NCBI GenBank assembly: GCA_035653735.1
Contig: DASRBG010000052.1
Coordinates: 4,990 to 68,989 of the forward strand
Source of the DNA: Gemmataceae bacterium
GTDB taxonomy: Bacteria > Planctomycetota > Planctomycetia > Gemmatales > Gemmataceae
Direction of reading: 5' to 3'
DNA length: 64,000 bases
This document shows, in pieces, positions 2,412 to 58,315 of this stretch. The stretch's first letter is position 1. Each line of letters opens with the position of its first letter. A program made the translations under genes and the position numbers. A model generated the notes under the pieces. That model saw nothing but the letters and a program-made list of their open reading frames with translations, was not told the origin of the DNA and did not search any database.

Positions 2412-2487
2412 GGCGAGCGGGGTCGCGTTAGCGCCCCGAGTATGTCTCTCGGGACGCTAACGCGACCCCGCTCGCCTACCGCTTTTT
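2412..2487 (+). terminator. palindromic element family A, copy 1; probable intrinsic terminator
   Basis: Arms 2412..2440 and 2448..2476 pair over 29 bp with one mismatch (core GGCGAGCGGGGTCGCGTTAGCG) around a 7-nt loop. TTTTT follows at 2483..2487. The element starts 5 nt after the stop codon of 101..2407. Confidence 0.6.
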
Positions 2488-2502
2488 CGGGGGACGCCCG
2501 CC

Positions 2503-3411
2503 ATGTTGATTCTGCGCGGTCATCAGGGGCCGGTGCGGTGTCTGGCGTATTCCCCGGATGGTGGGATTCTTGCTTCTGGTAGCGATGACAAGACAGTCAA
2601 GCTCTGGCGCTTAGACAGTGGATGCGAATATCGCACGCTTACCGGACATGAGGATTGGGTGCGAGCAGTGGCCTTCTCCGCCGATGGCAGGACACTGGCC
2701 TCGGGGAGTTGGGATGACACGGTTCGACTATGGGGCTTACGTAGAGAAAGCCAGCTCCTGCGCGATGCACGGTGCAAACGCATTAAGCGTCCTCACCGCT
2801 TTCAGGATCACGGAGGAATATGGGCCCTGGCATTCTCTCCCGATAAAACTTCGCTCGCGGTAGGCCATACCGATGGCCGGGTGTCGCTATACTGGATACG
2901 GGATCTCGACAACCCTCGCGACCTGGAAATGGTACACACGGGGCCGGTCAATGCGGTGGCCTTTTCGCCGAACGGCATGTTTCTGGCGACCGGCAGTCAC
3001 GATCGAACCGTGCGGCTTTGGAGCGGCGACTGGGGCAAGGGGTTCGGAAGGCTCATCACGCATAAGGATTGGGTCCGCTGTCTGGCGTTTTCTCCCAACA
3101 ACGAGCTAGCGGCTTCGGCCGGCGATGACACGATTATCAGAATCAATGAAGTCGGTAGCCGCAAGGAACGGATTAGGTTGGAAGGCCATGCCGCTTCCGT
3201 GCGACAGCTTGTCTTTTCCTCGGATGGTCGCACGCTTTTCTCTGCCGGCTGGGACGAGACAGTGCGCGTTTGGGATGTGACAACGAGCTGTCAGCGAGTC
3301 GCATTCAACTGGCAGATCGGCCGCGTTCACTGCATGGCGCTGGCGCCCGACGGCATGACTGCCGCAGCCGGCGGACATGATGGGTCCATTGTTATCTGGG
3401 ACGTGGAATGA
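2503..3411 (+). CDS. WD40 repeat protein (single seven-bladed propeller)
   Basis: 302-aa ORF made almost entirely of seven WD40 units, e.g. GHQGPVRCLAYSPDGGILASGSDDKTVKLW and GHEDWVRAVAFSADGRTLASGSWDDTVRLW. Confidence 0.85.
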   Translation: MLILRGHQGPVRCLAYSPDGGILASGSDDKTVKLWRLDSGCEYRTLTGHEDWVRAVAFSADGRTLASGSWDDTVRLWGLRRESQLLRDARCKRIKRPHRFQDHGGIWALAFSPDKTSLAVGHTDGRVSLYWIRDLDNPRDLEMVHTGPVNAVAFSPNGMFLATGSHDRTVRLWSGDWGKGFGRLITHKDWVRCLAFSPNNELAASAGDDTIIRINEVGSRKERIRLEGHAASVRQLVFSSDGRTLFSAGWDETVRVWDVTTSCQRVAFNWQIGRVHCMALAPDGMTAAAGGHDGSIVIWDVE

Positions 3412-3429
3412 CACCGCTCGCCTGCGTTC

Positions 3430-5010
3430 TCATTCCTGGAGTTCCAGGTTCCGCAGAATTTCAAGCGCGCGGGAAAGACTTTCCTGCGGACTTCCCTCCG
3501 TGGAGATGGTGTGACAAAATCGTTGGATGAGCTCGCCCGGTTCCTCCCAACTCGCGGCAAGATGCAAATAGATGGACCAGTCGGCATCGGAGGCGTCGCC
3601 CTTCCGCTGCTCCAATCGCCGGCGCACCGTGTCCGGCTCAGCATGGCACAGCAGGATGGCTCCCTGAACGCCGCGGCGGACGGCCGCATCCAAGAAAGTC
3701 CGGCGCTGCTCGTCCTCGCGGAATGTAGCATCCACGATGACCCGCTTTCCCTCAAATAGGAGCTGCTCGGCCCTATGGAGGCACTCGGCATAGGTGCGTG
3801 CGGTCCACTCCGAAGTATAGATCACTTGCTGACGCTGCGGGCTGGCCGAGTCTTGTGCGGCTAATTCCTTGCGAACAACATCGGAGCGAATCAGGTCAAA
3901 ACCGGCTTTTTCTGCCAACGCCTGGGCCAGCATCGACTTCCCCGTGCCGGGAAGGCCCGCCATCAACAACAGACACGGCTTCTTCCTCGGTTCCTCCAGT
4001 TCGCTCAGGGCCAGAAGCCAATGGGCTTGCGCTCGCTGTCCGGCGGCGGCGCGTTCGGCCTCGGGCACTTCCTTCTCCGCTGTCAACATTCCCTCTACTT
4101 CGCCGCGCACCGTCGCCCGGTATGCCGTGTACAACGGTAGAAGCTCCCACCCTTCCGCATCGCCGGCTGAATGGAAGTAGGCATCGGCGAAGGCGTGGGC
4201 CAAATCCCGCCGGCCGTAAAAACTCAGATCCATGACGGTAAATGCCATGTCGGCCACTGGGTCGATGAAGCGAAAGCGCTCGTTGAACTCGATGCAATCG
4301 ATGATGACGAGGTCGCCGGGCGGCCTTTCGTCGGGAAAGTAATAGATGTGGTCCAGGTGCAAATCGCCATGCGTGTCGCGCGGCACGCCTCGGCCGGCAC
4401 GCGCTTCGATCAAAGGGCGGAGCCGCGACAGGGTTTCTTCCGTCCGTTCTCGTATCCGCTCGAAGACGATCCGGCTGACCGTGTTCCCCACTTGAGGCGC
4501 CGAATGGGCCAGAACGTCTCGGATGATGCGAGCCACTCCATCAAATCGGCCAAAGGCGGCGATCCGTTCGTTCGTATCGGCCGTGCGGTGAAAGGACGCG
4601 ATCTCGCGCGCCAGCGATTCGATCAACTCGACGCCGACCTCGCCGCGGCGCAGACGCTCTTGGAGAGTGGCCTCTGCCGGAAGGCGCTGCATCTTTACCG
4701 CCCATTCGACGACCTCGCCCTCGCCTTCCCATCTCACGCCGATCTTCGTGCGGACGACCGGCACCACGCCCAAATACACATCCGGAGCCAGCCGGCGGTT
4801 CAGGCGCACCTCCTCCTGGCAAAAGTGGAGCCGCTTCTCCAAGGTGCTGAAATCGAGAAAGTCGGGTTTGACCGGCTTCTTGATCTTGTAAACATATGTT
4901 CCCGTCAGAAAAACCACCGAGATGTGGGTTTGACGGATTTCTACAGCCTCTACAGGCTCAGGATAAGCGGTGGGAGCGGAAAGCGCCTCGATGAGTTCAG
5001 CGAGATTCAT
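3430..5010 (-). CDS. bifunctional phosphotransferase-like / P-loop ATPase protein
   Basis: 526-aa ORF. The N-terminal part carries aminoglycoside/choline-kinase-type catalytic segments (HGDLHLDHIYY ... VIIDCIEF). The C-terminal part has a Walker A loop (GLPGTGKS). Confidence 0.8.
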   Translation of the reverse strand: MNLAELIEALSAPTAYPEPVEAVEIRQTHISVVFLTGTYVYKIKKPVKPDFLDFSTLEKRLHFCQEEVRLNRRLAPDVYLGVVPVVRTKIGVRWEGEGEVVEWAVKMQRLPAEATLQERLRRGEVGVELIESLAREIASFHRTADTNERIAAFGRFDGVARIIRDVLAHSAPQVGNTVSRIVFERIRERTEETLSRLRPLIEARAGRGVPRDTHGDLHLDHIYYFPDERPPGDLVIIDCIEFNERFRFIDPVADMAFTVMDLSFYGRRDLAHAFADAYFHSAGDAEGWELLPLYTAYRATVRGEVEGMLTAEKEVPEAERAAAGQRAQAHWLLALSELEEPRKKPCLLLMAGLPGTGKSMLAQALAEKAGFDLIRSDVVRKELAAQDSASPQRQQVIYTSEWTARTYAECLHRAEQLLFEGKRVIVDATFREDEQRRTFLDAAVRRGVQGAILLCHAEPDTVRRRLEQRKGDASDADWSIYLHLAASWEEPGELIQRFCHTISTEGSPQESLSRALEILRNLELQE

Positions 5011-5039
5011 GGCAGCTCCCTTCCGGACAGAAGAAGACC

Positions 5040-5170
5040 AACCACAGAGTCACAGAGAACGCAGAGAAAGACACAGAAATCGAACAAAAACAAGGCTCTC
5101 AGATTCTGACTAATTCCATTTTGATTTTCCTCTGTGTTTTTTCTCTGTGTTCTCTGTGACCCTGTGGTTA
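5040..5170. repeat. palindromic element family B, copy 1 (MITE-like, long A/T-rich loop)
   Basis: Left arm is AACCACAGAGTCACAGAGAACGCAGAGAAAGACACAGAAA (5040..5079). A near-complementary right arm ends in CTCTGTGACCCTGTGGTTA (to 5170). The loop is about 48 nt and A/T-rich. The terminal TTA of the right arm is the stop codon (reverse strand) of 5168..6787. Confidence 0.85.
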
Positions 5171-6787
5171 GTGCTTTTTATCCTCCAGTGGTGCGTATCT
5201 GGCGATGATGGCCTTTGCCGACCGTAGGCCATCGACGGCGGCACTGACAATGCCGCCCGCGTAGCCGGCGCCTTCGCCAACCGGATACAGTCCTTCCAAT
5301 CCCGGCGTCTCGCGCGTGATCTCATCGCGGAGGATGCGCACCGGGGCGCTACCGCGTGCCTCCGGGCCAACCAGCGTCGAGTCCGGGACGAACCGGCCAC
5401 GCCACTGATGGTCCATGATCGGCAGGCCGTGCCGCAGCGCCTCGACGATCAACGGCGGCACCAGTTCGGCGATGCGTCCCGGTACGGCGCCGCGCGGATA
5501 GCTATTGTCCGGAACATCGCTTGCATCGCGGCTATCCAGAAAATCGCGGACGCGCTGGATCGGGCAGAGATAATCGCGCCGGCCCATCTCGAAAGCGCGT
5601 TGTTCATAAATCTGTTGCAAACGCATGCCGGCGAGGACATCCGTGCCGCCGAAATGCTCGGGCGGCACCGTCACCACCAGGCCGCTGTTCGCAAACGGCG
5701 AATCGTGTTTCGACAGACTCATGCCGTTGGTGCAGAAGGAGCCCGGCTCTGACACACTCGGCATAATGTAACCGCCGGCGCACATGCAGAACGTGAAGAG
5801 ATCGTGCGGGCCGTTGGCGATCAACGTATAGTTTGCCGCCCCCAAGCGCTGCTCCAGCGGTGAGGGGCCATATTGGACGCGATTGACGATCTCTTGCGGA
5901 TGCTCGATCCGCACGCCCATCTGAAACGGCTTCTGCACCATCGGCACGCCGCGCTCCAGCAACATGCGATACGTATCGCGAGCGCTGTGGCCAATGGCCA
6001 GAACGGCCACCGTCGCTGGAATGTAACCCGACGAGGTAGCTAATCCGCGCAATTGGCCGCCGGAGAGATCGAGATCCTCAACGCGGCAGGAGAAGCGCAC
6101 TTCGCCGCCGAGACTTTCGATGCGACGGCGAAGTGCCTTGACGACGGCCGGCAAGCGATTGCTGCCCAGGTGCGGCCGGGCGTCGTAGAGGATCGAAGGT
6201 TTGCCCTTGCACTCGGCGAACAGTTGCAGCACCCGGCGAACGTCGGGGCCGGAATTGCGATAGGTCAATTTGCCGTCGCTGAACGTGCCGGCCCCGCCCT
6301 CGCCGAACAGGTAATTGCTTTCCGGATCGAGCGGGCCGCCGGCATCGAAAGTGCGAACATCGTGGATGCGCTGGCGCACGGGCCGGCCGCGCTCCAACAT
6401 GAGCGGGCGATAGCCCTGTTCGGCGAGAAAGTAAGCCGCCGCCAATCCGCCCGGACCCGAACCGACCACAACGGGCCGATTCGTCAACGGATACGTGCCG
6501 GGTTTGGGCGGGACGAACGGCTCCTCCGTATAGAGATCGATCCTTACCGGCGGGCGCACAGCCCTCCGGGCGTGGGCGATGATCCGTTGCTCATCACCGG
6601 GAAGGGTGACCTCGGCATTGTAGACGAAGCGAAGCGCGTCTTTGCTGCGTGCGTCGAGCGACTTGCGAAGAATGCGCCAATTCAAGGGCGCGGTCGGGCT
6701 TAGGCCAAGAATGCGGGCCAGATGCTCTGGCAGCATCGCTTCCGGCTCGTCGATGCCGAGACGCAGGTTGGCGATGCGGATGGACAT
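5168..6787 (-). CDS. FAD/NAD(P)-binding oxidoreductase (COG2509-like)
   Basis: 539-aa ORF with the Rossmann dinucleotide motif VVVGSGPGGLAAAYFLAEQG. The N-terminus MSIRIANLRLGIDEPE is typical of this uncharacterised FAD-dependent dehydrogenase family (recognised from memory). Confidence 0.85.
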   Translation of the reverse strand: MSIRIANLRLGIDEPEAMLPEHLARILGLSPTAPLNWRILRKSLDARSKDALRFVYNAEVTLPGDEQRIIAHARRAVRPPVRIDLYTEEPFVPPKPGTYPLTNRPVVVGSGPGGLAAAYFLAEQGYRPLMLERGRPVRQRIHDVRTFDAGGPLDPESNYLFGEGGAGTFSDGKLTYRNSGPDVRRVLQLFAECKGKPSILYDARPHLGSNRLPAVVKALRRRIESLGGEVRFSCRVEDLDLSGGQLRGLATSSGYIPATVAVLAIGHSARDTYRMLLERGVPMVQKPFQMGVRIEHPQEIVNRVQYGPSPLEQRLGAANYTLIANGPHDLFTFCMCAGGYIMPSVSEPGSFCTNGMSLSKHDSPFANSGLVVTVPPEHFGGTDVLAGMRLQQIYEQRAFEMGRRDYLCPIQRVRDFLDSRDASDVPDNSYPRGAVPGRIAELVPPLIVEALRHGLPIMDHQWRGRFVPDSTLVGPEARGSAPVRILRDEITRETPGLEGLYPVGEGAGYAGGIVSAAVDGLRSAKAIIARYAPLEDKKH

Positions 6788-6869: not shown

Positions 6870-7322
6870 TTACTTGCTGCGGTTGACTAAATCGGAAATC
6901 CTCACCTTTTCCAGAGCTTTGCGCATCTGCTCGGCGGTTTGGCCGCAGACTTGCTCCAGCTTGGGATGAAGGCTGTTCCAGGTCTGGTTGAATTTCTTGA
7001 TCTGCGAGGGCGAGAATTCATCATCCTTATCGGTCGGGCGATCCGGCGCATAACCACGGAGAGTGCCATCCACTGCTTCGATGATGTCGAGCATGGTGAT
7101 GTCCGACGGGGTACGAGCCAACCGGTAGCCGCCGTGAGGCCCCTTGACCGAAAGCAAAATGCGGTGGGTGACGAGCGGCTTGAGTACCTTGAGCAAGAAA
7201 CGCATGGGGATACCGCGTTCATTGGCGATGTCGTGCGACGCCACCGGAACGTTTGTCGCTTTCTGTTGGGCCATGTGGACGACAGCATGCAAGGCGTAAC
7301 TGGATGCGCGTGTCAGTTTCAT
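6870..7322 (-). CDS. Rrf2 family transcriptional regulator
   Basis: MKLTRASSYALHAVVHMAQQ... is the canonical Rrf2 winged-helix N-terminus. The ORF extends upstream to 7406, but the family-typical start is the ATG at 7322. There is only one Cys, so it is probably not an Fe-S cluster type. Confidence 0.8.
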   Translation of the reverse strand: MKLTRASSYALHAVVHMAQQKATNVPVASHDIANERGIPMRFLLKVLKPLVTHRILLSVKGPHGGYRLARTPSDITMLDIIEAVDGTLRGYAPDRPTDKDDEFSPSQIKKFNQTWNSLHPKLEQVCGQTAEQMRKALEKVRISDLVNRSK

Positions 7323-7693
7323 GGAATCATCACGGCCGTCCGTTTCCGGACAGCTCTCGCTCCTGTACGTGAATGGGACGAACGGGGAACGCGGATCGAT
7401 GTTCAATGCCTCTCGGCATTAAGGTATGGCTGCATGATGCCGCTCCCTCGGCGTTGAGAGGCGGGGTAGGCGAAGAAAACGCTCAGCAGGAAGAGGCCGA
7501 GTAATCATTGCTTAACATCGATCCGTAAAGTTTGAATATAGTCTTGGTCGAACGGCTTGGCAATCCCTCTTTCTACCCCTAATATCAGCCATCCTCTGCC
7601 AAGATAGGAGGCTTCTCCCTCCAAGGCCAGATCTACGAACGTATTTTCTATATTGGATACGAAAATGCAAGCGGACCGGAAGAAAAGGCGGAC

Positions 7694-19800: not shown

Positions 19801-19814
19801 GAAGGAGATGCCTC

Positions 19815-20027
19815 ATGACACGATCTTCTGCTCATCGCCCCAGCGCCGTTCAGGTGGAAAAATCGCCACTGCCGATGCCATCCAACGGCGGCTCCAGCGG
19901 TGCTCCGGCCGCGCCGCCGGCATCGAGTGTGGCGTGGTACTGGCGTCTGGCCCTGTTTTTGTGGGCCACATCGTTCGCATTTCTGCTGCTGTATGAATGG
20001 CTGGCAGGCATCATCAAGGCATGGTAA
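19815..20027 (+). CDS. small hypothetical membrane protein
   Basis: 70-aa ORF whose ATG lies 7 nt after GAAGGAG (19801..19807). It has a C-terminal hydrophobic helix (WYWRLALFLWATSFAFLLLYEWLAGII). No homology recognised. Confidence 0.4.
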   Translation: MTRSSAHRPSAVQVEKSPLPMPSNGGSSGAPAAPPASSVAWYWRLALFLWATSFAFLLLYEWLAGIIKAW

Positions 20028-20030
20028 ACG

Positions 20031-20097
20031 AGGCGAGCGGGGCGTGTTCACGCCTCGTGAGTATCCGCTCGGGGCGCTTACGCGACCCCGCTCGCCT
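20031..20097. repeat. palindromic element family A, copy 2 (degenerate)
   Basis: A 12-bp perfect outer stem (AGGCGAGCGGGG / CCCCGCTCGCCT) encloses a degenerate interior. The right arm GGCGCTTACGCGACCCCGCTCGCC carries the last codons and the stop codon of 20078..20908. Confidence 0.8.
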
Positions 20098-20908
20098 TTG
20101 CTTCGCACTCGCGCATATAACGCAGGCTCTCTCGCGCGATTGTCTCCGGATCGGGAGAGTAATCGAACACTTCGACCGAGACCCAGCCCGCATAGCCGCT
20201 TTCGCGCAGAGCGCGGAAGATAGGCACGAAATCGACTGGCCCAAAGCCGGGTCCGCGGCGATTGGCGTCATTGGCGTGAAAATGGCCGGTGCGGGCAGCG
20301 TGTCGGCGGATCAAATCCGGGACCGGCGTATCTTCCGATGACATCGCCTTGACATCGAGATGCAGCAGGAAGTTCGGATCGGCGAGGCGATCAAGGATCT
20401 TAACGGCCTCGGCGCAGGTGTTGATGAAATCGGCCTCGGCCGGCGCTAATGGCTCCAGGCATAGCTTGACGCCGCTGTCGGTGATGCCCTTCTGAGCACG
20501 GCGAAAAGTATCGACAGCGTAATCGACAGCCTGCGCGCGGCTGGCGCCGGCGGGAATGCGCCTCTGCGCCGGCGAGCCGAAGACGAGGATGTCGCCGCCG
20601 AGATCGGCACAGCAGCGCGCTAGCGCGGCCAGGTAGTCAGCGGTCCTTTGCCGCACGTCTGCATCGGCTGCTGTCAGCTGCAATCCCTCTGTTTTTGCCA
20701 AAAGCCAATGTAATCCCAGCAGCGTCAGACCGTGATCCTCCGCCTGGCGGCGCAGCTCTAGGCGTCGTTCGGCGGACACTTCTTCGATGGAGCGTGCCAG
20801 CGTGAAAGGAGCGATCTCCAACCCCTGATAACCAAGCCCGGCCACGAAGCGACAAACACGCTCGTGTTCCCAACCCTCGAACGTCTCATTGCAAATGGCG
20901 TAACGCAT
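20078..20908 (-). CDS. sugar phosphate isomerase/epimerase (xylose-isomerase-like TIM barrel)
   Basis: 276-aa ORF. MRYAICNETFEGW...GYQGLEIAPF is the typical N-terminus of this family. HLDVKAM and HFHANDANRRGPGFGPVDF are metal-site-like segments. Confidence 0.85.
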   Translation of the reverse strand: MRYAICNETFEGWEHERVCRFVAGLGYQGLEIAPFTLARSIEEVSAERRLELRRQAEDHGLTLLGLHWLLAKTEGLQLTAADADVRQRTADYLAALARCCADLGGDILVFGSPAQRRIPAGASRAQAVDYAVDTFRRAQKGITDSGVKLCLEPLAPAEADFINTCAEAVKILDRLADPNFLLHLDVKAMSSEDTPVPDLIRRHAARTGHFHANDANRRGPGFGPVDFVPIFRALRESGYAGWVSVEVFDYSPDPETIARESLRYMRECEAKASGVA

Positions 20909-20921
20909 AGGATAGAAGAGC

Positions 20922-21070
20922 TAACCACAGAGTCACAGAGAGCACAGAGAAAAACACAGAAAAATCAAAAGAACAATAAAGCAGTTCCCCTTTTAACCTT
21001 TTCCCTCTATTCTTCTCTTCTTTGTTTCTTTTCTGTGTTTCTCTCTGTGTTCTCTGTGACTCTGTGGTTA
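20922..21070. repeat. palindromic element family B, copy 2
   Basis: Left arm is TAACCACAGAGTCACAGAGAGCACAGAGAAAAACACAGAAAA (20922..20963). Right arm is 21029..21070, with two mismatches. The loop is about 65 nt and A/T-rich. It lies between the start of 20078..20908 and the stop of 21083..22690. Confidence 0.85.
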
Positions 21071-21082
21071 GTTTGTTTCTCC

Positions 21083-25102: not shown

Positions 25103-25132
25103 GGTTATGACTCCCACTTGCGAAGGGATCTC

Positions 25133-25191: not shown

Positions 25192-25238
25192 TACGATCTT
25201 CCCTCTACGTCTCGTATGTTCCACCGAAGGAGCTTGCG

Positions 25239-28708: not shown

Positions 28709-28726
28709 GGTCCGTGTTTCTCCGGC

Positions 28727-35913: not shown

Positions 35914-35939
35914 TTGTGTTCATCTGTGTTTATCTGTGG
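35824..35939. repeat. palindromic element, CACAGAT(A/G)AA variant related to family B
   Basis: Arms 35824..35847 and 35916..35939 pair over 24 positions (2 mismatches, 2 G-T). The 68-nt loop contains the start codon (35913..35911) and about 21 codons of 34786..35913. Confidence 0.7.
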
Positions 35940-36021
35940 CTAATTTATTGGAGGCTTATCGCTTTTATCGACCGGCGGATCGAAATTGTGAGCGAAAAAT
36001 CCGGCACGGTGCTAGCGCTCC

Positions 36022-36096
36022 GAGCCGCGCACGCAGCGCAGCGGAGTAAGCGGCACAGGTAGCCCCGCTTACTCCGCATCGCTGCGTGCGCGGCTC
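36022..36096. repeat. palindromic element family E, copy 3
   Basis: 32-bp stem (36022..36053 / 36065..36096) with two adjacent uncompensated mismatches and an 11-nt loop. The right arm overlaps the stop codon (36095..36097) of the Omp85-like gene. Confidence 0.85.
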
Positions 36097-39298: not shown

Positions 39299-39398
39299 TG
39301 CCGTCCTGAGATACCGTCCGCAGGACCGAATCACGATAGGGCTAAGCGTGGTGGTCGCATACCATGCCAGCGGAGGATTTGTCCAGGGCAATCTCGGA

Positions 39399-39493
39399 AG
39401 AAAGTGAGGAGTGAGGAGTGAGGAATGAGGGGAAGAAGAGATGCCGGTATTTGTTTTTTCTCCTCACTCCTCACTCCTTACTCCTCACTTTCT
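39399..39493. repeat. palindromic element family F (GTGAGGA heptamer arrays)
   Basis: Stem 39399..39438 / 39454..39493 is 40 positions with one mismatch and a few G-T pairs. The left arm has three GTGAGGA units. It lies in the divergent region between 36095..39298 and 39608..42853. Confidence 0.85.
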
Positions 39494-39577
39494 ACTCCGC
39501 GTTGACGCGACAACGGCCAAACCGTACTATCCGCTCGCTTTTTCTCGTTGTCGCGCGCGGCGCGGCAAGGAGGGCAA

Positions 39578-39607
39578 ACTCAGGATTCAGGACTCAGAAC
39601 TCCGAAC
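39578..39607. repeat. one-armed heptamer array abutting a start codon
   Basis: ACTCAGG ATTCAGG ACTCAGA ACTCCGA AC ends at the nucleotide before the ATG at 39608. The unit is the complement of the family D heptamer. Confidence 0.7.
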
Positions 39608-42600
39608 ATGACCTGGCGGAAATGGCTTGTCCGAAGTCTGGTCTTCTCCGTTTTGGGTCTGGCGATCCTCGTCGCACTGCTCTACGAGGCGTGGACCAAT
39701 CCCGCCGCCGTTCGCCGTCAGGTGCTTGCCAAGCTCCACAAGATCTTCATCGGCGCAACGGTCAATATCGATACCGCCCGGCTGCGCCTGCTCGGCGGCA
39801 TTGGCGTCCGCGATCTACGCATGGCGCGGCGCGACGAACTTGACCGCGGCGATTTCCTCTACGTTCCTTCCGCCGTCATCTATCACGACAAGGAGCACCT
39901 GCTCGATGGCACGCTCGGCGTTCGCAAGATCGAGCTGGATCGGCCGCGCGTCCGCGTCGTGTGCGAACGGGATGGGCGGATCAACCTCTCCGGCCTGCTT
40001 GCCCCCCCCGATCTCAACGAACGAGTGCCAACCCTAATTGTCCGCCGAGGCGTTCTTGTCATTGAGGACCGGCGAGGCCCCTCTCCCACGGTGCTGTTGG
40101 AAATCAAGGATCTCAACCTGACCGTCGTCAACGATCCGCTGTCCACCCTTGTCATCAAAGGGAACGGCCAGAGCGATGCCCTCGGCGCGGTGCGGATTGA
40201 TGCTCGCTTTTATCGTCCTAGCGATGCGGCCAGCGCGGTCGTGGAATTGCCCGAAGTGCCGGTTGGTCCGCCGTTGGTGCAGCGGTTCGTCGGTTTGTGT
40301 CCCGATTGCGCCCGCCACATCCGGGAACTGAGCGGTACCGCTCGCGTTCAGGCGACGTTGGTCTACCGGCCCGGGGCCGGCGCCGCCGAGCCGTTCACCT
40401 ACGATGTCAACTTCGAGTTGAACAAAGGGGAATGGCGACACGAATGTTTGCCCTCGCCGCTTGAGAACATTCACGCCAAGCTGCGCTGCATCAATGGCCG
40501 AATCCCTCACGCCGAGTTGCAGTCGCGGCTCGATGGGGCGAACGTCAAGTTGGATCTGTGGGACGTGGTGTTGCGAGAGCAGGCTCCCAACTGCATCCAG
40601 GACATGGTCGCCAAACTGGAGGCGAAGGTTGAGCATCTCACGGTGACGCCGAGGGTTTTCGAGCACTTGCCGCCGGTGTGCCAGAAGATTCAAAAGACCT
40701 ATAATCCGGCCGGCCCCGTTAGCTTGACCTATCAATTCTATCGCCCTGATGCGGAACGCTGGGAAAAACACTGGACCATAGAACCCGAAGGCATGACGGC
40801 AGAGTTCGAGGACTTTCGCTATCCCATTGAAGGCGTGACCGGCCGCGTCACTCTGGATCAGTCCAGCGGCTGCGACGACTTGATCCAGGTCGATCTGTCC
40901 GGCCGAGGTGCCGATCGTCCCGTCAAGGTAAACGGCTTCATCAAGGGAGACAAGACCAGCGAGGTCGATCTGGTCATCGCCGCGGACGATGTGCCGATCG
41001 ATCACCAGCTGATGAAAGCTTTGCCGGAAAAGAGCCGCGAATTGGCGCGCACGTTCCTACCCTCGGACAGCCGGGAGCTAGGCTTGTCGGAGCAACCCCT
41101 AGGACAGGTGCAGCCGGCGGGACTGGCGAACATCAAGGTGTTCGTTCGCCGCACACGTGGCCAGGAGGCTTTCGCCAACCGTTATCTCATCGCTTTTCAC
41201 GATTCCTCCCTGAAATACGACCTCTTCCCGTATCCGCTGGAGAAGGTGACGGGCGTTCTGGACATTCAACCGGATCACTGGGAATGCCGCGATTTCCATG
41301 GCAGCCATAAGGGGGGCGAAATTTGGGTGGAGGGATCGAACGACGGCCGGAGCGCGGGCGTCCCGCCCGCATCGAGCAGGAGCGCGGCCGAAACGCCCGC
41401 ACCGAGCGGTCGAGACGCCCGCGCTCCGAAGCATGAATGCGTGCAGGTCGCTATCCGCGGCAAGGACATTCTCCTCGATCCGGAGTTCGAGCAAGCATTG
41501 TCGCCGGAGAAGGTGCCGGGGCGGGCCGCGCTGCGCAACGCCTGGGCGATGCTGGCCCTGCGAGGCCGGCTCAGCTTCGAGTCGATCGTCCTCGATCGAC
41601 CGGATCAGCCGCAGGACATTGATGTCGCCGTGGACATCAAAGGCTGCTCCATGCAGCCGGACTTCTTTCGCTACGCCATGACCGACGTCAGCGCGGGCAT
41701 CCGCTATAAGCAGGGGCGCGTCTACGTCAAGGATGTCAGCGCCAAGCACGGCTCCGGCAAGCTGGGATTGAAGGAAGCCACGATCGTCCTCAAACCGTCT
41801 AGTGGTTTCACGGCCTGGTTCACGGACATCACCGGCGAAGATCTGTTGCCCGATGAGGAATTTCTACGAGCCTTGCACCCGGCCTTGAGGCACGGATTGG
41901 AGCCTTTGCAGATCCGCAAACCGCTCCAAGTCAAAACGAAGCTGGTCCTGGATGCGCCGACGGTCCCGGGCGAACCGATGAAAATCTGGTGGGACGGCGG
42001 CGCCGCCTTGCACAAGCAGCTCTTTCAGACAGGCGTGGAAGTGAGCGACGTGGACGGCATCATCTGGTGCGACGGCCATCACAATGGCCGGCAATTCGAT
42101 TACATCAAGGGACATATCGTTCTCGATCGCGCCACGATCCTCGGCCAACCGTTCACCAAATTGCAGGGCCGCATCAAGGTCGCCCCCGAAACGCCGGACA
42201 TTTTGTCGCTATACGATCTCTCGGCCAACGTATTCGGCGGCTTTGTCGGCGGCGAAGCGCGCTTCTTGTTCAGCTCGCCGTTGCGTTACGAGGTAAATCT
42301 CCATGCCCTGAACGTGCAGCTGGAACAGTTCGGCAAACACAATCAGCTCGGCGCCGACGCTCAGCTTCAGGGACCGGCTAGCGCCGGTCTCTACCTGACC
42401 GGCGAAGGCACCGACCTAAGCGGACTCAAGGGCAACGGCCGAGTCGATGTGGCTCGCGGCAAGATGTATCGGCTGCCGTTGCTGCTCGATCTGCTCAAGG
42501 CGTTCGGTCTGCGCATGCCGGACCGAACGGCCTTCGAGCAGGCCCACATGGTTTTCGGCATAGAGGGTCCGCAAATGCGCATTCACAGCCTGGACCTGTA

Positions 42601-42936: not shown

Positions 42937-44130
42937 GTGTTTGGCTCGATCCTGCAACGGATGATCCTATGGGAACTCACCAAAGTGTTCCTCATGTCAC
43001 TGGTAGGGATCACCGGCATCCTGCTCATGGCCGGCATCATCGCCGAGGCGTCGCAGCAAGGTCTCGGCCCGGCGCAGATTCTGGCCGCCATCCCCCTTCT
43101 TGTGCCCAGCACGTTGCCTTACACCATCCCAGCTACTACGCTGTTCGCTACCTGCGTCGTCTACGGACGATTGGCCGCCGACAATGAAATCCTTGCGATC
43201 AAATCCGCCGGCATCAACGCCATCCGCGTGGTCCGTCCCGGCATTTTTCTCGGCCTGGCCATGAGCACCGCCACCATGGGTTTGTACTACCGCATCATCC
43301 CCTACACGCACCACCTGCTCCGCGCCATGGTCTTCAATGACGCTCAGGAACTCTTGTATTCCCTGCTGAAAAAACACCATGAAATCAAACAGAACTCTTT
43401 TCCCTACCAGATCTTCGTTAAGGGAGTAAGAGACAGGAAGTTGATCGAACCGATCTTCAAGCGCAAGGACGCGCATGGGGCGATTGACTGGGTGGCTCAT
43501 GCCCGCGAGGCCGAGCTACAAGTGAGGCCCTCCCAGGGCCAGGTGGATGTGCTGGTGAAGCATTGCGTTGTATGGGGCGAAAACGACTCCAGCGGCATCT
43601 TGGAGGACAAACCGCTTACCGTCGAGCTGCCCAAAGATTTTGGCAAATTGAACGAACGCCGGCCGCGCGATCTGACCTGGCAAGAGATTCTCGATCGCCG
43701 CGTCGAGTTAGAAAAGAAGATCGAGGAAATACAAGCAAAGACTTCCGTGGATACGGCACGCTTGCTGCTTATCCAAGCGCCGGAGAACCTTCCTCTCTTT
43801 TTGAAATCCTGCAAGGATCAGATGGACAAAGCTCAACAAGAAATCGTCGCACTGAATGTCGAATTGCAGATGCGCCCGGCGCTTAGCTTGGGCTGTCTGT
43901 TCTTCATTCTGGTTGGCTGTCCGGTCGGCATTTGGTTTAGCCGCAGCGATTACCTCAGCGCCTTCATCACGTGTTTCTTGCCGATCGTGTTCATTTACTA
44001 TCCGTTGATGCTTTGCGGCACCGGCATGGCCAAGGAAGGACGCTACAACATGATCCCGCTCGTCTGGGGCGCGGACGCGGTCGTCGGCGTGATGGGCGTG
44101 GTGTTGTTCTGGCGATTACTGAGGAATTAA
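42937..44130 (+). CDS. LptF/LptG family permease (YjgP/YjgQ)
   Basis: ILQRMILWELTKVFLMSLVGITGILLMAGIIAE... is the typical LptF/G N-terminus. Three N-terminal and three C-terminal helices flank a periplasmic domain. The GTG at 42937 lies 5 nt after GGAGG; the ORF opens at 42913. Confidence 0.85.
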   Translation: MFGSILQRMILWELTKVFLMSLVGITGILLMAGIIAEASQQGLGPAQILAAIPLLVPSTLPYTIPATTLFATCVVYGRLAADNEILAIKSAGINAIRVVRPGIFLGLAMSTATMGLYYRIIPYTHHLLRAMVFNDAQELLYSLLKKHHEIKQNSFPYQIFVKGVRDRKLIEPIFKRKDAHGAIDWVAHAREAELQVRPSQGQVDVLVKHCVVWGENDSSGILEDKPLTVELPKDFGKLNERRPRDLTWQEILDRRVELEKKIEEIQAKTSVDTARLLLIQAPENLPLFLKSCKDQMDKAQQEIVALNVELQMRPALSLGCLFFILVGCPVGIWFSRSDYLSAFITCFLPIVFIYYPLMLCGTGMAKEGRYNMIPLVWGADAVVGVMGVVLFWRLLRN

Positions 44131-44132
44131 CC

Positions 44133-44215
44133 ACGAAAAAGGACAAAAGGGACTAAAAGGACCAAAAAGAATGGTCTTCTTTTTGGTCCTTTTAGTCCCT
44201 TTTGTCCTTTTTCGT
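44133..44215. repeat. 39-bp perfect palindrome (family H)
   Basis: 44133..44171 (ACGAAAAAGGACAAAAGGGACTAAAAGGACCAAAAAGAA) pairs perfectly with 44177..44215 around a 5-nt loop. It lies between the convergent stops of lptF/G (44130) and the sigma factor gene (44224). Confidence 0.9.
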
Positions 44216-44223
44216 CGTTTCTT

Positions 44224-45828
44224 CTATTCCGTCTCGGCGAATTCGGCGAGGCGTTGACTGCGGAGCGGCTGACGCAGCTTGAGCAAACCGCGCGCTTCGA
44301 TCTGGCGGATGCGTTCGCGCGTGATTCCGTATGCTCGTGCCACTTCCTCTAGCGTTCGCGGCTGGCCGTCGCGCAAACCGAAGCGCAACTCGATCACTTC
44401 GCGTTCCCGCGGCGTCAGCGAACGCAATACCTCGGCGATACGCTCGCGCAGCAAATGCTGATCGACCTGCTGGCCGGGATTGGCAGCGTCGGGGTCATCG
44501 AGGAAATCTTCCAAAGCGCGTTCGCCATCGCCGCCGAGCGGTTCGTGCAAGCTAACCGGATGCCGCGATACGACGCGGAGCGATTGCGTCTCTTCGGGCG
44601 TCACGCCGAGGACGGCGGCGATCTCTTCCACGGTCGGCTCGCGGCCCTGCTGGATGGATAGTTCGCCGCGCACCCGCTCGACCGCCGCCAGCGTGCCGAC
44701 TTGATGGCAAGGCACACGGATCGTGCGAGCGTGGTCGGCCAGGGCGCGAGTGATGCCCTGACGAATCCACCAGGTCGCGTAGGTGCCGAACTTGTATCCC
44801 AGTCGATGCTCGTACTTATCCACCGCCCGCATGAGGCCGCGATTGCCTTCCTGAATGAGATCCGAGAACGGCAGGCCGCGGCTGCGATAGCGTTTGGCGA
44901 TCGACACGACCAGACGCAAGTTACCTTCAGCCAATTCGCGTCGCGCTTTTTGATATTCAATCCGGCGATGTTCCAGCACCCGCACCAGCTTGGCGAGATC
45001 CTCGGAGGAGGAACGCACTTCGTGAGTGAGGTCGCGCAGCTGCTTGGCCGCCTTGGTACGGCGTTCGCGGTCGGCGGACGAGCGATGGCCGGCGTCCTTC
45101 TCCCGTTCCAGCTGAGCCATCTGCCGGGAAAAAGCTCGCAGCTCATCGACCCAGCGATCAAGGAGATCGATGCGCGGCGACAATTCCTCCGCCAGACGCA
45201 CGGACTTGCGGAGTCGCCGCCAGAGATCGCGTCGCGTTCGCTGGTGGCTGACCGAAGAGCCCGCCCGTAGATGGCGGAAGTCGGTGTCGGCAGCGTCGAT
45301 GAGTTTTCGCAGCGTTCGCAGGTTGTGGGGCATGCGCTGCAAGATGCGTTCACGGCTTAGCCCCAGGGTCGTCACCACGTCGATGGTGGGATCGAGGGCC
45401 AGCTGGCCGGCGCGAACGCGCTCGAAGGTGTCCACGATGCAGCCCAAGGTGCGCCAGTTCATCATGGCAGCGTGGCGATAACGGCGGCGTTTTAGCTCCA
45501 GCCGTTCGGCCAAGGCCAATTCCTGATCGCGACTCAAGAGTGGGATTGCGCCCATCTGCCGGAGATAGAGTCCGAGGGCGTCATCCGGCGCGTGCGCATC
45601 TTCTTCCTCTAGTTCGTTAGCGGCCGCCGTTTCTTCAGCGGCCGCCTCCTCTAACTCCTCGGCATCTTCCGCGGGGAAGGAATCGTCCGGAAGTTCGCTC
45701 CACGGCGTCTCGCGCCGCGCGGGGATCTCCTCCGCCTCGGCTTCGTGCACAAGGGGTTCGGGTACGGCCAACGCCGGCTCGGAAGCCGCGTTTTTACCTG
45801 TCCGCTTGGTTGTCCGTCTCATGACCAT
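44224..45828 (-). CDS. rpoD: primary-type sigma-70 factor (RpoD/SigA-like)
   Basis: 534 aa with an acidic N-terminal region. [21 protein letters not shown] (region 1.2), [60 protein letters not shown] (region 2), [28 protein letters not shown] (region 4.2). Confidence 0.9.
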
Positions 45829-46765
45829 GACTCTGTCCTGTAGAGGCCATCCCGTTCCTTCCTAGCTCGGGGGATGTTTAAATACGATTGCCGCCGGATC
45901 GACCGCAATCCGGCCCCCGACGGCAGAAGAGAGCATATAGTGTTCCACTCCCGACAATAAGCATGAAGCCGCTGGCGGCTTCGGAGACGCCCCATAGCTG
46001 GGAAAGCGATCCTGCTATGTTATAGATCTACGCCGTCCCACCAAGAGGGCAGTTCGCCACTTTCTCCGCCTCGTCGAGGACCGAACAAATGGATACTCGG
46101 AATAGCGCCGGGAGGGTTGCGACCTGATTGCGGCCAATGCTCCTACAAACCATTCTACGCAAAACAAGTCCGGCGAGTTTCGTTATCAACGAAAAAAAAT
46201 TCACAAAATCCTCAAGAAGACGCCCTGCTCCGTCGTCAAGGTCCGCAACGCCCGCCTGTTTGACGCCCCTCGTGCCTATCCTGTTCCCAGTTCTCGGATT
46301 GAGCGACTCCCCGGAACCCGAACGCCTGTTGATACGTTTATTCTAGCTCAGTTCCAGCCGCTAGTTGCTGTTTTCGTTCCATTATTGTCCGGCATGAACT
46401 TCCCCCTGCCTGAGGGAGGAAGAAGTGGGCGATAATGCACAGGCTGTAGCGGGAAGACCCATAGAGAACAAATTATCACTATTGGAAGATCGCTGATCGT
46501 ATGTACCGCTCGCTGAAGGACCGCGGCACAACATTTGCTCCCCCTCCTTTCGTTCTTTCGCCCTATGGAGCGACGTTCGATTGTTGCGCCAAAGTGTCGG
46601 TATGAATTGCGGATTCGCTCGATTTCACTTGCTCGGTGGGAAGTGAAATGCGATGATACCTTAGGCAAAACACACTACGATATACGTTTGGGTTGAACTC
46701 GTAGAATGGGCGAAGGAAGGGGCCGCACCGATCGACATTCACTCTGACAGCTTGGGGAGGTTGCC

Positions 46766-48126: not shown

Positions 48127-48197
48127 CCGAAGTGCCGGAGCGCGGGCATCTCGCTCGCAGACCAGGCGGGCGAGACGCCCGCGCTCCGGCACTTCGG
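48127..48197. repeat. palindromic element family I, copy 1
   Basis: 21-bp perfect stem (48127..48147 / 48177..48197) with a 29-nt loop. Each arm carries the 23-24-nt unit CGGAGCGCGGGC(G/A)TCTCGC(C/T)CGC, which is itself a mini-hairpin. It lies between the convergent stops at 48109 and 48218. Confidence 0.9.
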
Positions 48198-50937: not shown

Positions 50938-51077
50938 ATCCTTACTTTCGTTACAACTGCCATTGAAGAAAGGACTTAATTCCGTTATTCCTACTCAGAG
51001 GCTACAGGTCTCGTTAAGACTTTTTCGACGCCTTGAACCGTGCCCGTTGCGATGTGTCTTGATGGACGAGATGCGCA

Positions 51078-51431
51078 ATGGCCTCCTCCTCCCAACAACC
51101 CCCGCCGACACCTCAGACGACGATACATCGGGCGGAGAGGGCTTCCGGGCCTGACGGAGCGGTAGAGTGGGGAGACGAATTGACCATTGATGAGGCTATT
51201 CAAGAGCGAAAAAAAGGTTTGGACATCGTCGTGCGCGGGCCTGATCCGAAAAACAACCGCAGGAGAGCGAGGGAAATCGAATCCGGGGTCGGGACGCCGA
51301 TCACAGAAGATGCGCCTCACCCCAAAGCGGGACGAATGGCATTACCTCATTTTCATCAAGTCTCTCGTTCTCCCGACGGCCATTCCTTTTACGAAGGTTG
51401 CGGCCGTTGGGCGAGGAAGAAAAAGTCATGA
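51078..51431 (+). CDS. small hypothetical protein (possible orphan toxin-like module)
   Basis: 117-aa ORF. Its stop overlaps the next gene's start in ATGA (51428..51431). The C-terminal half carries LPHFHQ and GHSFYE segments. Codon usage is atypical and A/T-ending, and the N-terminal 30 aa are low complexity, so the start is uncertain. Confidence 0.4.
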   Translation: MASSSQQPPPTPQTTIHRAERASGPDGAVEWGDELTIDEAIQERKKGLDIVVRGPDPKNNRRRAREIESGVGTPITEDAPHPKAGRMALPHFHQVSRSPDGHSFYEGCGRWARKKKS

Positions 51432-51982
51432 AATACTTTACCCCCGATCTGCTCGCCCGTTTTCGATCGCTCGACGACGCGGTAGCTGAGGCCGCGAGCG
51501 TGGAATGGCAACATCAGTGCGAGGCGTACACCAAGCACTTGAAAGAAATCCGCCTGGATCTTTCTTCGGGAGCGCGGCGAGTGTTGCGGCGGTATCAATT
51601 TCATGACGCGAAAGTGCTAACGATAGCTTCGGATGATGTCCCGCACTTCTCCTTTTTCCTTGAAATCGATGCCCCAACAGCACAAGAGGGTAAGAATCGC
51701 CTTGAATTGAGGTATCGGCTAGTCGGCGGAGTTGGCAAAGGTTATGAGATGATAGAACACAATGAGTTAGCTGCTGACGGAAAGCCCTATGGATGGTGGC
51801 TATACGACGAGTTTGATGTCAGCAAAGGCGACGTTCCAGCGATGACGCATTCCATCCTTTTCACTGGCGGCAGGGAAATTCGACTGACGTTCTTTAGCGT
51901 CAGTTGCAGGCGATTAGACTTTTTCTCTCTCCCCGCCGATCGGCCCCCTTTGCTGGAATTGAATCCTAGCGCGGCAGGTTAA
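51428..51982 (+). CDS. MKYFT-start hypothetical protein (DUF4085-like, from memory)
   Basis: The ATG at 51428 gives MKYFTPDLLARFRSLDDAVAEAASVEWQHQCEAYTKHLKEI... This N-terminus resembles a widespread uncharacterised family I recall as DUF4085. The ORF opens 30 nt upstream at 51398. Confidence 0.6.
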   Translation: MKYFTPDLLARFRSLDDAVAEAASVEWQHQCEAYTKHLKEIRLDLSSGARRVLRRYQFHDAKVLTIASDDVPHFSFFLEIDAPTAQEGKNRLELRYRLVGGVGKGYEMIEHNELAADGKPYGWWLYDEFDVSKGDVPAMTHSILFTGGREIRLTFFSVSCRRLDFFSLPADRPPLLELNPSAAG

Positions 51983-52081
51983 TGCTTGCTTTTGCCTGCC
52001 GACGCCGCGATTCCGCCATTGATAGCTGCCAAAGCTTGGCGGCAGGGGGTTCGACGGGGTAGCGCAATCGATGAACTCCCG

Positions 52082-57121: not shown

Positions 57122-57146
57122 GAGCGCGATCTCCTCTATCGGCAGC

Positions 57147-57196
57147 GTTTTCGTTTTAGCCGAAGCGCGGGCGTCCCGCCCGCTAAAACGAAAGCG
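57147..57196. repeat. family I unit embedded in a short hairpin
   Basis: AGCGCGGGCGTCCCGCCCGC (57164..57183) is flanked by TTCGTTTTAGC / GCTAAAACGAA. It lies in the 77-nt gap between the DUF58 stop (57199) and the BatA-like start (57121). Confidence 0.75.
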
Positions 57197-57198
57197 AC

Positions 57199-58128
57199 TT
57201 ATGAATGATGGCTGCTGCGCGCCAGTCGGTGCGCCAAATAACTCGACAGCACAATGCCCAGCTGCATATCGGTACGCATCGTCACGTAATCGATGTTCTG
57301 CGCCAGGCAGCCGCGCTGCAATTCCAACAGAAAACCCTCAATCTGCTCCAGATAGCCATCGCGCAGCGAACGCGGATCGGTCAGCATCTCCGGATATTGT
57401 TCCAGGCCGCGAAACAAGGTCGCCTCCTGAAACGGAAACTCCAGTTCGGCGCGATCGAGAACGTGCATGACGATGACTTCGTGCCGCTTGTGCCGCAAAT
57501 GCTTCAACCCATTGAGAACGTCCGGCAAATCGTCGAAGAAATCGCTGAACACGACGATAATGCCGCGGCGCGGGATGCGCTCGGCCAGGTCATGGAAGAT
57601 GGGCGCCAGACTAGTGCGCTCGCGGCCTGCCCCCTTGTTCAGACAAGAAATCATCTGCTTGAGGTGCGACGGCTGACTGACCGGTTTGAGCAACTGGCGC
57701 ACCTGATTGTCATAGGTGACGAGTCCGGCGGCGTCCTGCTGATGCAAGATCAAGTAGGCCAGCGCCGCCGCACCCATGCAGGCATAATCATATTTGCTGA
57801 CAAGAGGTTTACCGTCGTCGCCGAAAGGTCCGGAGCCATACTGCATCGATTCGCTGGCATCCACGAGCAGCCAGCAGGCCAGGTTTGTTTCTTCTTCGTA
57901 TTGCTTGAGATAAAAGCGCCCGGTACGGCTGTAGACCTTCCAATCGAGGTGTTTCAAATCGTCTCCGGGGACGTATTCGCGGTGCTGGGCGAACTCGACG
58001 GAGAAGCCGTGATAGGGACTTTTGTGCATGCCGGACAGATAACCCTCGACGATGAGCCGCGCTTGCATTTCCAGATTGCGAACTTTGGCCAGCGCGATGG
58101 GGTCGAGATATTGGTGGGTGTCTTGCAT
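57199..58128 (-). CDS. DUF58 domain protein
   Basis: 309 aa. GMHKSPYHGFSVEFAQHREYVPGDDLKHLDWKVYSRTGRFYLKQYEEETNL is the DUF58 signature region, followed by a VWA-like segment (LLVDASESM). Confidence 0.9.
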   Translation of the reverse strand: MQDTHQYLDPIALAKVRNLEMQARLIVEGYLSGMHKSPYHGFSVEFAQHREYVPGDDLKHLDWKVYSRTGRFYLKQYEEETNLACWLLVDASESMQYGSGPFGDDGKPLVSKYDYACMGAAALAYLILHQQDAAGLVTYDNQVRQLLKPVSQPSHLKQMISCLNKGAGRERTSLAPIFHDLAERIPRRGIIVVFSDFFDDLPDVLNGLKHLRHKRHEVIVMHVLDRAELEFPFQEATLFRGLEQYPEMLTDPRSLRDGYLEQIEGFLLELQRGCLAQNIDYVTMRTDMQLGIVLSSYLAHRLARSSHHS

Positions 58129-58257
58129 GAGTTTTCCTGATCGCCGCGTCCGCGGAAATTCTCCTCCTCCGGTTTCAATGTATCATACCAATCCAGCGTC
58201 CCGAACTCGAGTCGGGCCGACCGGAATTACGGGAACGTTACTGGCGAAAACAATTGG

Positions 58258-58315
58258 TTAGCGACGCTTCGTAGAAGCGTCGAGCGGCGACGACGCTTCT
58301 ACGAAGCGTCGCTAA
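58258..58315. repeat. palindromic element family G, copy 2
   Basis: 25-bp perfect stem TTAGCGACGCTTCGTAGAAGCGTCG (58258..58282) / 58291..58315 with an 8-nt loop. It lies between the stop of 58335..59927 and the start of 57199..58128. Confidence 0.9.

Follow-up and report, generated by a model that had tools for sequence, protein, structure and literature searches.

The stretch of DNA analysed here (the window) comprises 64 kb of the genome of a soil planctomycete of the Gemmataceae, positions 625–64624 of ENA contig k141_311054, and contains many long, near-perfect palindromes, lettered below in families A to J, that fold into stable hairpins. The GC content of the window is uniform (~0.60). 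Its genes include housekeeping ones (dxr, an M50 protease gene, rpsT, metK, lptF/G, sigma factors and an MMPL transporter), one tRNA-Arg, and several encoding planctomycete-style prenyltransferase-like and PSCyt/PSD proteins. Dxr is 90–92% identical to proteins of Gemmataceae metagenome-assembled genomes (MAGs), and the MMPL protein is 100% identical to one from "MAG TPA Gemmataceae bacterium". Palindromes account for 2.9% of the whole window and for 18.6% of its non-coding part, one element occurring about every 2.8–3 kb.

An earlier reading of the letters alone, referred to below as the sequence-only reading, had listed 23 of these elements. All 23 were located to within a few nucleotides (nt) by a repeat search and an independent inverted-repeat finder, with the sequences read directly. 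With a stem of at least 16, at most 12% mismatch and a span of at most 220 nt, 18 inverted repeats were observed in the window, whereas 40 shuffles that preserve dinucleotides averaged 0.9 and reached at most 17 matched bp; 15 of the observed repeats have 21–42 matched bp. The full hairpin elements have minimum free energies (MFEs) of −30.9 to −91.4 kcal/mol, with z = −5 to −14 in the eight folds compared with shuffles. Arms within a family are 85–91% identical, and loops and 30-nt flanks are at ~50%, which is alignment background. The elements are multi-copy, with the arms, not the loops or flanks, as the conserved unit, and the earlier statement that loops within a family are unrelated holds. 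A search of the whole window with Rfam at gathering thresholds matched the tRNA-Arg only, so the hairpins represent no catalogued RNA family.

The palindromes had been described as at least ten unrelated families of one architecture. About ten families are real, but "unrelated" is too strong, as a TTAG tag is common to G, the element I4 and the inner part of A1, and TTAACCAC ends are common to B and H. Families A, B, C, E, G and I have 2–4 copies each inside the window, and F, H and J one each; B3 (TTAGCCACAGATRAACACAGATG) is a subfamily distinct from B, I4 is not a solo unit, and a solo heptamer array (28726–28749) had been overlooked. Instead of one architecture, at least three can be told apart: tagged, GC-rich hairpins resembling repetitive extragenic palindromic (REP) sequences; long purine/pyrimidine-asymmetric hairpins with TTAACCAC or TTAGCCAC ends; and hairpins made purely of heptamer arrays. 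Nor is the presence of many families together as unusual as had been thought, since several REP families per genome are already documented (PMC6006769, PMC3733652), as are multiple families with their REP-associated tyrosine transposases (RAYTs) (PMC2817692, PMC6006769).

Family G has the organization of a REP. Its unit is asymmetric, with a 5´ (G)(G/T)TTAG tag followed by a 9-bp stem and a 3-nt loop (consensus cG.TTAGCGACGCTTCGCAGAAGCGT), and the core is itself a hairpin, CGACGCTTC-GCA-GAAGCGTCG. The window holds a doublet with the TTCG tag variant at 25131–25193 (G1), 30 nt past the stop of gene 23669–25102, a doublet with outward tags (TTAGCGACGCTTCGTAGAAGCGTCG) and perfect 25-bp arms at 58254–58319 (G2), and a solo unit on the forward strand at 33147–33169 (G3; TTAG + CGACGCTTC-GCA-GAAGCGT). 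A scan for the G unit, covering one genome per species, found it in at least 116 stretches from more than 15 MAGs, nearly all Gemmataceae, Gemmatales or Planctomycetota and none of them the window's own genome. Among 224 units the tag is TTAG in 163 and TTCG in 20, and the 3´ side shows no conservation. The units occur singly and as tags-outward inverted doublets with spacers of 2–51 nt. In the 63 tags-outward doublets of related loci the arms co-vary: 60% of doublets have two identical arms, compared with 39% of arm pairs drawn at random.

In one relative, G doublets lie directly on both sides of an open reading frame (ORF; L098:1996–2595) that was reached via a weak phmmer match of E. coli RayT. 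It encodes 199 amino acids (aa) with the motifs HVHMVI and YVWNNPIKEG, and most of its 260 homologues bear the JGI name RayT. A family profile matched only 4ER8 (E. coli TnpA-REP) in the PDB, and an AlphaFold model of the protein (mean predicted local distance difference test score, pLDDT, 90.9) matches the fold of 4ER8 best, with IS200/IS605 TnpA structures in all of the next 29 places. The survey was extended to 80 metagenome loci encoding relatives of this ORF. In most loci that retain their flanks, the RAYT gene is flanked, usually on both sides, by hairpin doublets tagged (G)TTTAGC or GGTTAGC, in tags-out as well as tags-in orientation, the stems of which differ from one RAYT lineage or locus to another. 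The G unit itself lies beside a RAYT gene in five loci (L124–L126, L131 and L174). We consider it highly probable that G is a RAYT-associated REP, which bears out the REP/BIME (bacterial interspersed mosaic element) precedent drawn in the sequence-only reading. The loci with a RAYT flanked by G have the REPtron arrangement (PMC6006769), with the tag TTAG in place of GT[AG]G.

A strict search of the window for TTAG followed by a hairpin returned both arms of G2, G3, two sites in the inner part of A1, I4 and one site in the coding sequence of a sigma-70 gene. I4 (57146–57196) is a TTAG-tagged REP whose I-type hairpin forms the middle of a 51-bp palindrome with CGTTTTCGTTTTAGC ends; these ends match the extended tag of G doublets in L121, and the hairpin resembles REPs beside RAYTs in L135, L137 and L142. 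A1 (2412–2476; 29-bp arms, 97%) begins 4 nt past the stop of gene 101–2407, and its inner part is a TTAG-tagged hairpin pair (GTTAGCGCCCCGAG...CTCGGGACGCTAAC). The sigma-70 site, at 45617 on the forward strand within gene 44224–45828, consists of TTAG and a 9-bp-stem hairpin (CGGCCGCCG-TTTCTT-CAGCGGCCG); it may represent a decayed tagged REP, or the match may be due to chance.

The other two A copies are A2 and A3. A3 (26103–26190) has arms of 42 bp (98%), a single A unit forms its centre, and the outer 8 nt on each side hold the stop codons of the convergent rpsT and MMPL genes. A2 (20031–20097) lies between a small ORF (19814–20029, forward strand) and the AP_endonuc_2 gene (20078–20908, reverse strand), and its right arm encodes the final six codons of the latter (ASGVA*). 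The orthologs of AP_endonuc_2 in two relatives (L002 and L003) end alike (KASEVA* and KANTL*), in DNA similar to the 5´ portion of A-like units (GGCGA[GA]C). A repeat may long ago have been captured to become the 3´ end of the gene, or the likeness may be coincidental. The small ORF, between the M50 protease gene and A2, encodes ~72 aa (...YEWLAGIIKAW*) and is conserved, its counterpart being called as a gene of 73–77 aa in both relatives.

Long hairpins with TTA(A/G)CCAC ends, purine-rich 5´ arms of 8–10 nt periodicity and variable AT-rich centres form the second architecture (B, B3 and H). B1 (5037–5172) has arms TAACCACAGAGTCACAGAGAAC(A/G)CAGAGAAA around an AT-rich centre of 65–70 nt, and the stop of gene 5168–6787 (reverse strand) lies inside it. 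B2 (20909–21083), of the same family, separates AP_endonuc_2 from a trypsin-PDZ gene. B3 (35824–35939) is an imperfect hairpin built on TTAGCCACAGAT(A/G)AACACAGATGAAC. H1 (44124–44224), with 48-bp arms of 8–9 nt periodicity and TTAACCAC ends, spans the interval that separates the convergent lptF/G and sigma-70 genes, and its TTAACC end provides the TAA stop codon of lptF/G. In related loci a TTA[AG]C end was found in 22 of 131 inverted repeats that are neither arrays nor G, against a background of 0.6%.

The third architecture, comprising C, D and F, consists of exact heptamer arrays in inverted pairs. C1 (6785–6876; (GGTTTTC)5 / (GAAAACC)4–5) abuts the stop of gene 6870–7406 (reverse strand), and C2 (32466–32550) uses the same heptamer, with a preceding TTAGCC that supplies the TAG stop of an aminotransferase gene. 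F1 (39397–39495; (GTGAGGA)4 / (TCCTCAC)4) lies between the divergent M1 peptidase and DUF748 genes, and D1 (28161–28240; (GAGTTCT)n) within the MMPL coding sequence. There are also arrays without a partner: a single arm of ACTCAGG-type heptamers (D2, 39577–39607) immediately before the probable DUF748 start codon (ATG at 39608), and the array at 28726–28749 (CGGCTCT x3.4) 5´ of the MMPL gene. The heptamer of F1 was also seen in clearly unrelated hosts: inverted (GTGAGGA)3–4 arrays around AT-rich spacers of ~90–140 nt with poly-A/T runs occur in IMG/VR contigs of GC 0.24–0.47 (L272, L273, L283, L285, L287, L289–L291 and L294), including giant-virus MAGs, and L272 contains a pair of them, oppositely oriented and separated by 2.7 kb.

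Among the remaining elements, E1 (28864–28954) is a perfect palindrome of 38–40 bp in a divergent region, 47 nt upstream of the tRNA-Arg, E2 (30493–30571) a perfect palindrome of 34–36 bp between convergent genes, and E3 (36019–36099) a palindrome that overlaps the stop codon of the M1 peptidase gene. I1 (48127–48197), a doublet of I units (GGAGCGCGGGCGTCTCGCCCGC), also lies between convergent genes; I2 (41348–41428) is a doublet with a degenerate third unit in its loop, and I3 (27534–27556) a solo unit. J1 (33196–33284) is an imperfect palindrome of 89 nt, present once (MFE −59 kcal/mol, z −6.9). E arms start with CCGA-GCCGCG and I units with CGGA-GCGCGGGCG, so both fit the 5´ CnGA foot of the atypical hairpins flanking class 3 TnpA-Y1 genes, which are found mainly in Planctomycetes and Acidobacteria and whose hairpins reach high copy number, about 600 in Solibacter usitatus (PMC6006769). 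The phylum is the same, but the likeness amounts to four nucleotides, and neither a class 3-like protein, which would be marked by NHVH, W[TA] and Y....Q motifs, nor a further Y1 protein besides that of L098 was found in the ~2 Mb of fetched loci. For this reason the class 3 link of E and I stays a lead.

Three elements are in frame within coding sequences: D1 and I3 in the MMPL gene and I2 in the DUF748 gene. Orthologs of both proteins were taken from protein searches, as the fetched loci contained none. In the alignment D1 (residues 157–183) falls in a hypervariable loop and adds 16–21 codons relative to 7 of 13 MMPL orthologs. One ortholog of 80% identity (P0253) has the stretch encoded by the D1 heptamers, and others contain either a different insert or no insert at all. 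I3, which encodes AGETPALR, falls in another hypervariable loop of the protein, occupied in other orthologs by other repeat-like inserts, and I2 contributes 27 in-frame codons to a hypervariable loop of the DUF748 protein. Elsewhere in the MMPL protein (residues ~545–565; 27000–27100) an insert of 11 residues (GGASRAVASQAEPGNEN region) is common to the window protein and one ortholog (P0242) and absent from the others.

The sequence-only reading had proposed searching other genomes for the arms, and they do recur there. Two results that it had named as refuting, arms failing to recur and arms conserved no better than flanking DNA, did not come about. Besides G, the arms of B and of B3 were each found in seven loci of relatives, with up to 100% identity, and those of E in one. 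Among IMG/VR contigs E was found in two, the I unit in 33 (GC 0.52–0.69) and A in four, one contig (L213) bearing A together with E; in those contigs with A or E that were examined, the match to the window is confined to the palindrome. H was found neither among the IMG/VR viral contigs nor in the fetched related loci, and J, searched in the fetched loci only, was not found there. The 33 "viral" contigs (L214–L246) contain the exact 22-nt I unit GGAGCGCGGGCGTCYCGCCCGC, a spread far beyond Gemmataceae; some of these copies are apparently in GC-rich coding-like sequence, and several of the contigs have a common context. The 0.9 Mb of G-bearing loci contain 199 inverted repeats of at least 20 bp, about half of them non-G and spread over many further families, among them TTTAGCCGCGACCCGAAGGGGAGCGCG, an A-like GGCGAACCGGCAGCGTTAGCTGCCGGG, canonical GTAG REPs and many heptamer-array hairpins. 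Single contigs may be rich in them: L301 (9 kb, GC 0.63) has 12 inverted repeats and L278 (11 kb, GC 0.60) eight, of many different families that include GGCGTGG and ACCAATG arrays, a GTAG REP and B-like elements. In the orthologous dxr–M50–AP_endonuc–trypsin region of L002 and L003, different families fill identical intergenic slots. The repeats occur throughout the lineage, and they turn over. In L003 the slot of A2 is taken by five small hairpins in tandem (CCCTCCCCCACAGGGGGGGAGGG, 35-nt period; L003:14122–14284).

An apparent 38-nt indel in A1 among near-identical strains was rejected as a poly-G/N scaffold gap (L206:7397–7440). Two further contigs, L208 and L209, end within G2; the assemblies with these gaps and ends are GCA_037025105.1 and GCA_037025085.1. 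The palindromes break or gap short-read assemblies of these MAGs.

With respect to genes, the positions reported in the sequence-only reading, including those in a divergent region and inside coding sequences, were recovered, as was the clustering at stop codons and convergent junctions. A palindrome is present at 6/9 convergent, 8/20 tandem and 2/9 divergent junctions. Hairpins with z < −2.5 occur at 12 of 37 gene 3´ ends, and a long hairpin at about a third to half of them. The stop codon of a neighbouring gene lies inside or abuts A2, A3 (both convergent genes), B1, C1, C2, E3 and H1. One possibility considered was that the tag is nothing more than the stop codon ending the upstream gene, in which case target choice would account for the position. 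It was dropped as a general rule because enrichment over control frames is weak: the TAG of G units closes an open frame of at least 100 codons in 42/165 cases, and the shifted control frames gave 34/224 and 40/224. It does hold for C2, H1, B1, A3 and E3 individually. Two gene-free gaps, 45829–46765 (0.9 kb) and 50938–52081 (1.1 kb), have neither a long palindrome nor an Rfam match.

These positions might suggest that the palindromes are ordinary factor-independent or Rho-assisting terminators that evolved in place, their similarity reflecting convergent selection for stable GC-rich stems. Their location at stops and convergent junctions and their high stability fit this, as do the A-rich 5´ and T-rich 3´ flanks of B-type elements (B2 among them), which resemble those of bidirectional terminators, and the two differences between E1 and E2, both of which are compensated in the opposite arm such that pairing is preserved. 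However, arms of 23–33 nt are identical at unrelated loci and across species whose genes are ~82% identical, G units flank a transposase, copies occur within coding sequences and divergent promoter regions, and terminator-like sites consisting of a hairpin and a T-tract number 19 in the window against 20.4 ± 4.4 in shuffles, i.e. are not enriched. T-tracts are missing from the long palindromes, the exceptions being the T-rich flanks of B and a TTTTT 8 nt past A1. Origin in place as terminators is accordingly improbable, and of the terminator role considered plausible in the sequence-only reading, the location survives and the canonical terminator structure does not. Even less probable is that the arms are binding sites of host proteins (nucleoid-associated, gyrase/IHF-like as in BIMEs, or an RNA-binding regulator) kept by selection. 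Arms of 100% identity across species with free loops, an I unit kept in contigs of widely differing GC content, and CACAGAG motifs of 8–9 nt period in B that resemble iterated sites would agree with this, but no candidate protein is known, ten sequences would require ten binders, and the conservation of G is already explained by RAYT recognition.

Two further alternatives concern particular architectures. Some families, notably B, B3 and H (TTAACC...GGTTAA), could be miniature inverted-repeat transposable elements (MITEs) of a TA-targeting DDE transposon of the IS630/Tc1-like type, with the transposase encoded elsewhere. Their ends can be written as TA + ACCACAGAG ... CTCTGTGGT + TA, their arms are identical across species and the copies are dispersed. 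Against this, interiors are not conserved among copies, the seeming TA belongs to a longer flank that is inverted (AAAGAACTAACC / GGTTAGTTCTTT) and not directly duplicated, and no direct duplications flank the E or B copies; no DDE transposase was seen beside any copy, the neighbouring B copies of L076 have no transposase between them, and the solo units of G have a conserved tag on one side only. We regard a MITE origin as unlikely. Better founded, if still the less probable account, is that the heptamer-array hairpins (C, D, F and the solo arrays) arose by replication slippage and template-switch or hairpin-templated copying, with no transposition; such copying might create and homogenise the inverted arm, and the families would be a few favoured heptamers. 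The arms are exact tandem heptamers, solo arrays exist, none of 18 array hairpins has a TTA[AG]C tag, identical heptamers form inverted arrays in unrelated contigs of very different GC content, and the preferred heptamers are specific to each related genome. The heptamer and a variant of it (GGTTTTCAG) are, however, common to C1 and C2, which suggests copying, and D1 has been kept as a coding insert in an ortholog of 80% identity.

The explanation that we favour, with a probability of roughly 0.6, is that the window is a sample of a population of dispersed hairpin repeats typical of Gemmataceae genomes. A RAYT encoded elsewhere in this genome would cleave and rejoin single-stranded G-type hairpins at the tag and thereby copy them, E. 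coli TnpA-REP being the precedent for such cleavage and rejoining. I4 and the inner hairpin of A1 would belong to the same TTAG-tagged system; the outer arms of A, E, I1–I3 and J are probably substrates of further Y1-type enzymes, and the B/H and heptamer-array hairpins (C, D and F) are dispersed hairpins that do not fit the tagged type. Copies would survive where they are tolerated: on or just past stop codons, between convergent genes, and in frame in hypervariable loops. The simplest explanation for the unrelated loops within a family would be that palindrome centres decay; long perfect palindromes are known to be unstable at their tips.

Several observations weigh against this explanation. 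No transposase was found in the 64-kb window by a Pfam search, in agreement with the sequence-only reading, and the RAYT is known from the genomes of relatives only. The L098 protein scores under the curated cut-offs of both families to which it would belong (NCBIfam REP_Tyr_transpos, E=1.7e-13 and 50.7 bits with a cut-off of 80; Pfam Y1_Tnp, 22.9 bits with a cut-off of 23). E, I1–I3, J, B, H, C, D and F do not have the form of a tag and hairpin, the heptamer-array hairpins lack the tag altogether, and only G and, in relatives, other TTAGC-tagged types are found beside RAYTs. The G tag, TTAG, differs from the canonical GTAG and CGTC, and the doublet loops of 2–51 nt are mutually unrelated, compared with the fixed spacers of Pseudomonas REPINs (REP doublets forming long hairpins). 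Three of the elements are intragenic. Finally, no insertion polymorphism was seen among eight sequences that are 99.9–100% identical to the window (L204–L211), where the only differences are assembly gaps.

As to function, by analogy with E. coli REPs the transcribed hairpins would most likely serve as elements of the 3´ untranslated region, blocking 3´ exonucleases and reducing read-through; their lack of a U-tract counts against this. E. coli REP325 is a partial Rho-dependent terminator and mRNA stabiliser (bioRxiv 10.64898/2026.03.23.713779). A bolder and rather doubtful proposal is that Gemmataceae, without classical U-tract terminators, use fast-turnover, interchangeable hairpin cassettes as general 3´-end modules of transcripts. 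The repertoire would consist of TTAG-tagged REPINs provided by domesticated RAYTs, CnGA-type palindromes, and heptamer-array "zipper" hairpins, which would be a previously undescribed class able to pair in several registers. Cassettes that bring their own stops (TTAG, TTAA and GTAATTAC of A3) would cap ORFs at the landing site, and some might have been exapted as peptide inserts in protein loops. Because canonical terminators are not evident, Gemmataceae are a good place to test REP-like hairpins as main 3´-end elements.

The closest known systems are the REP, BIME and REPIN sequences with their RAYTs in E. coli, Pseudomonas and Stenotrophomonas (PMC3116915, PMC2817692, PMC3733652, PMC6006769). 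Like G, these are GC-rich hairpins with an unpaired 5´ tetranucleotide tag that occur singly and as inverted doublets forming long hairpins, in hundreds of extragenic copies near gene 3´ ends, with a single Y1 HUH transposase gene flanked by repeats and several families per genome. Here, by contrast, the tag is TTAG(C), the RAYT clade is divergent, the doublet spacers are short, variable and unrelated, many families are packed densely into 64 kb with some copies in frame, and most families are not tied to a RAYT. Class 3 TnpA-Y1 systems differ in their class 3 protein, which was not found in any of the loci examined here. D1, I2 and I3 behave like Rickettsia palindromic elements (RPEs), which are in-frame palindromes that add a peptide segment in a tolerant region of a gene product; the resemblance is one of behaviour only. 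RPEs are reportedly 100–150 bp long, AT-rich and restricted to Rickettsia, and the present elements are mostly extragenic, shorter, and GC-rich or heptameric. The Correia elements and inverted pairs of DNA uptake sequences (DUS) of Neisseria are likewise dispersed inverted repeats located at 3´ ends, where they can terminate transcription or influence how stable the mRNA is. The former are MITEs that duplicate TA and keep conserved interiors, and DUS are uptake signals; neither feature was found here. The heptamer arrays recall the short tandemly repeated heptamers (STRR) of cyanobacteria. They also recall the intergenic TAACTGA direct repeats of Beggiatoaceae (PMC4679880), all being intergenic arrays of 3–6 tandem heptamers with lineage-specific preferences; those arrays are mainly direct, whereas here inverted pairs make hairpins of 25–40 bp at gene ends. 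GTAG and CGTC REPs have been described from more than 80 species, including Planctomycetes (PMC3733652). Our literature searches brought up neither an account of the Gemmataceae repertoire nor any report of a TTAG-tagged RAYT clade or of heptamer-array hairpins.

In conclusion, the core of this repeat population is of the REP/REPIN–RAYT kind, from which it differs by its tag, by the unusually many co-resident families and by the in-frame copies. To our knowledge, REP/REPIN–RAYT systems have been studied almost only in Proteobacteria. The window would add a planctomycete lineage in which the system takes a different form, with one RAYT clade, a TTAG tag and many co-diversified hairpin types, and in which tagged REPs coexist with other hairpin classes, with an element roughly every 3 kb. 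The in-frame copies illustrate how hairpin repeats feed variation into protein loops.

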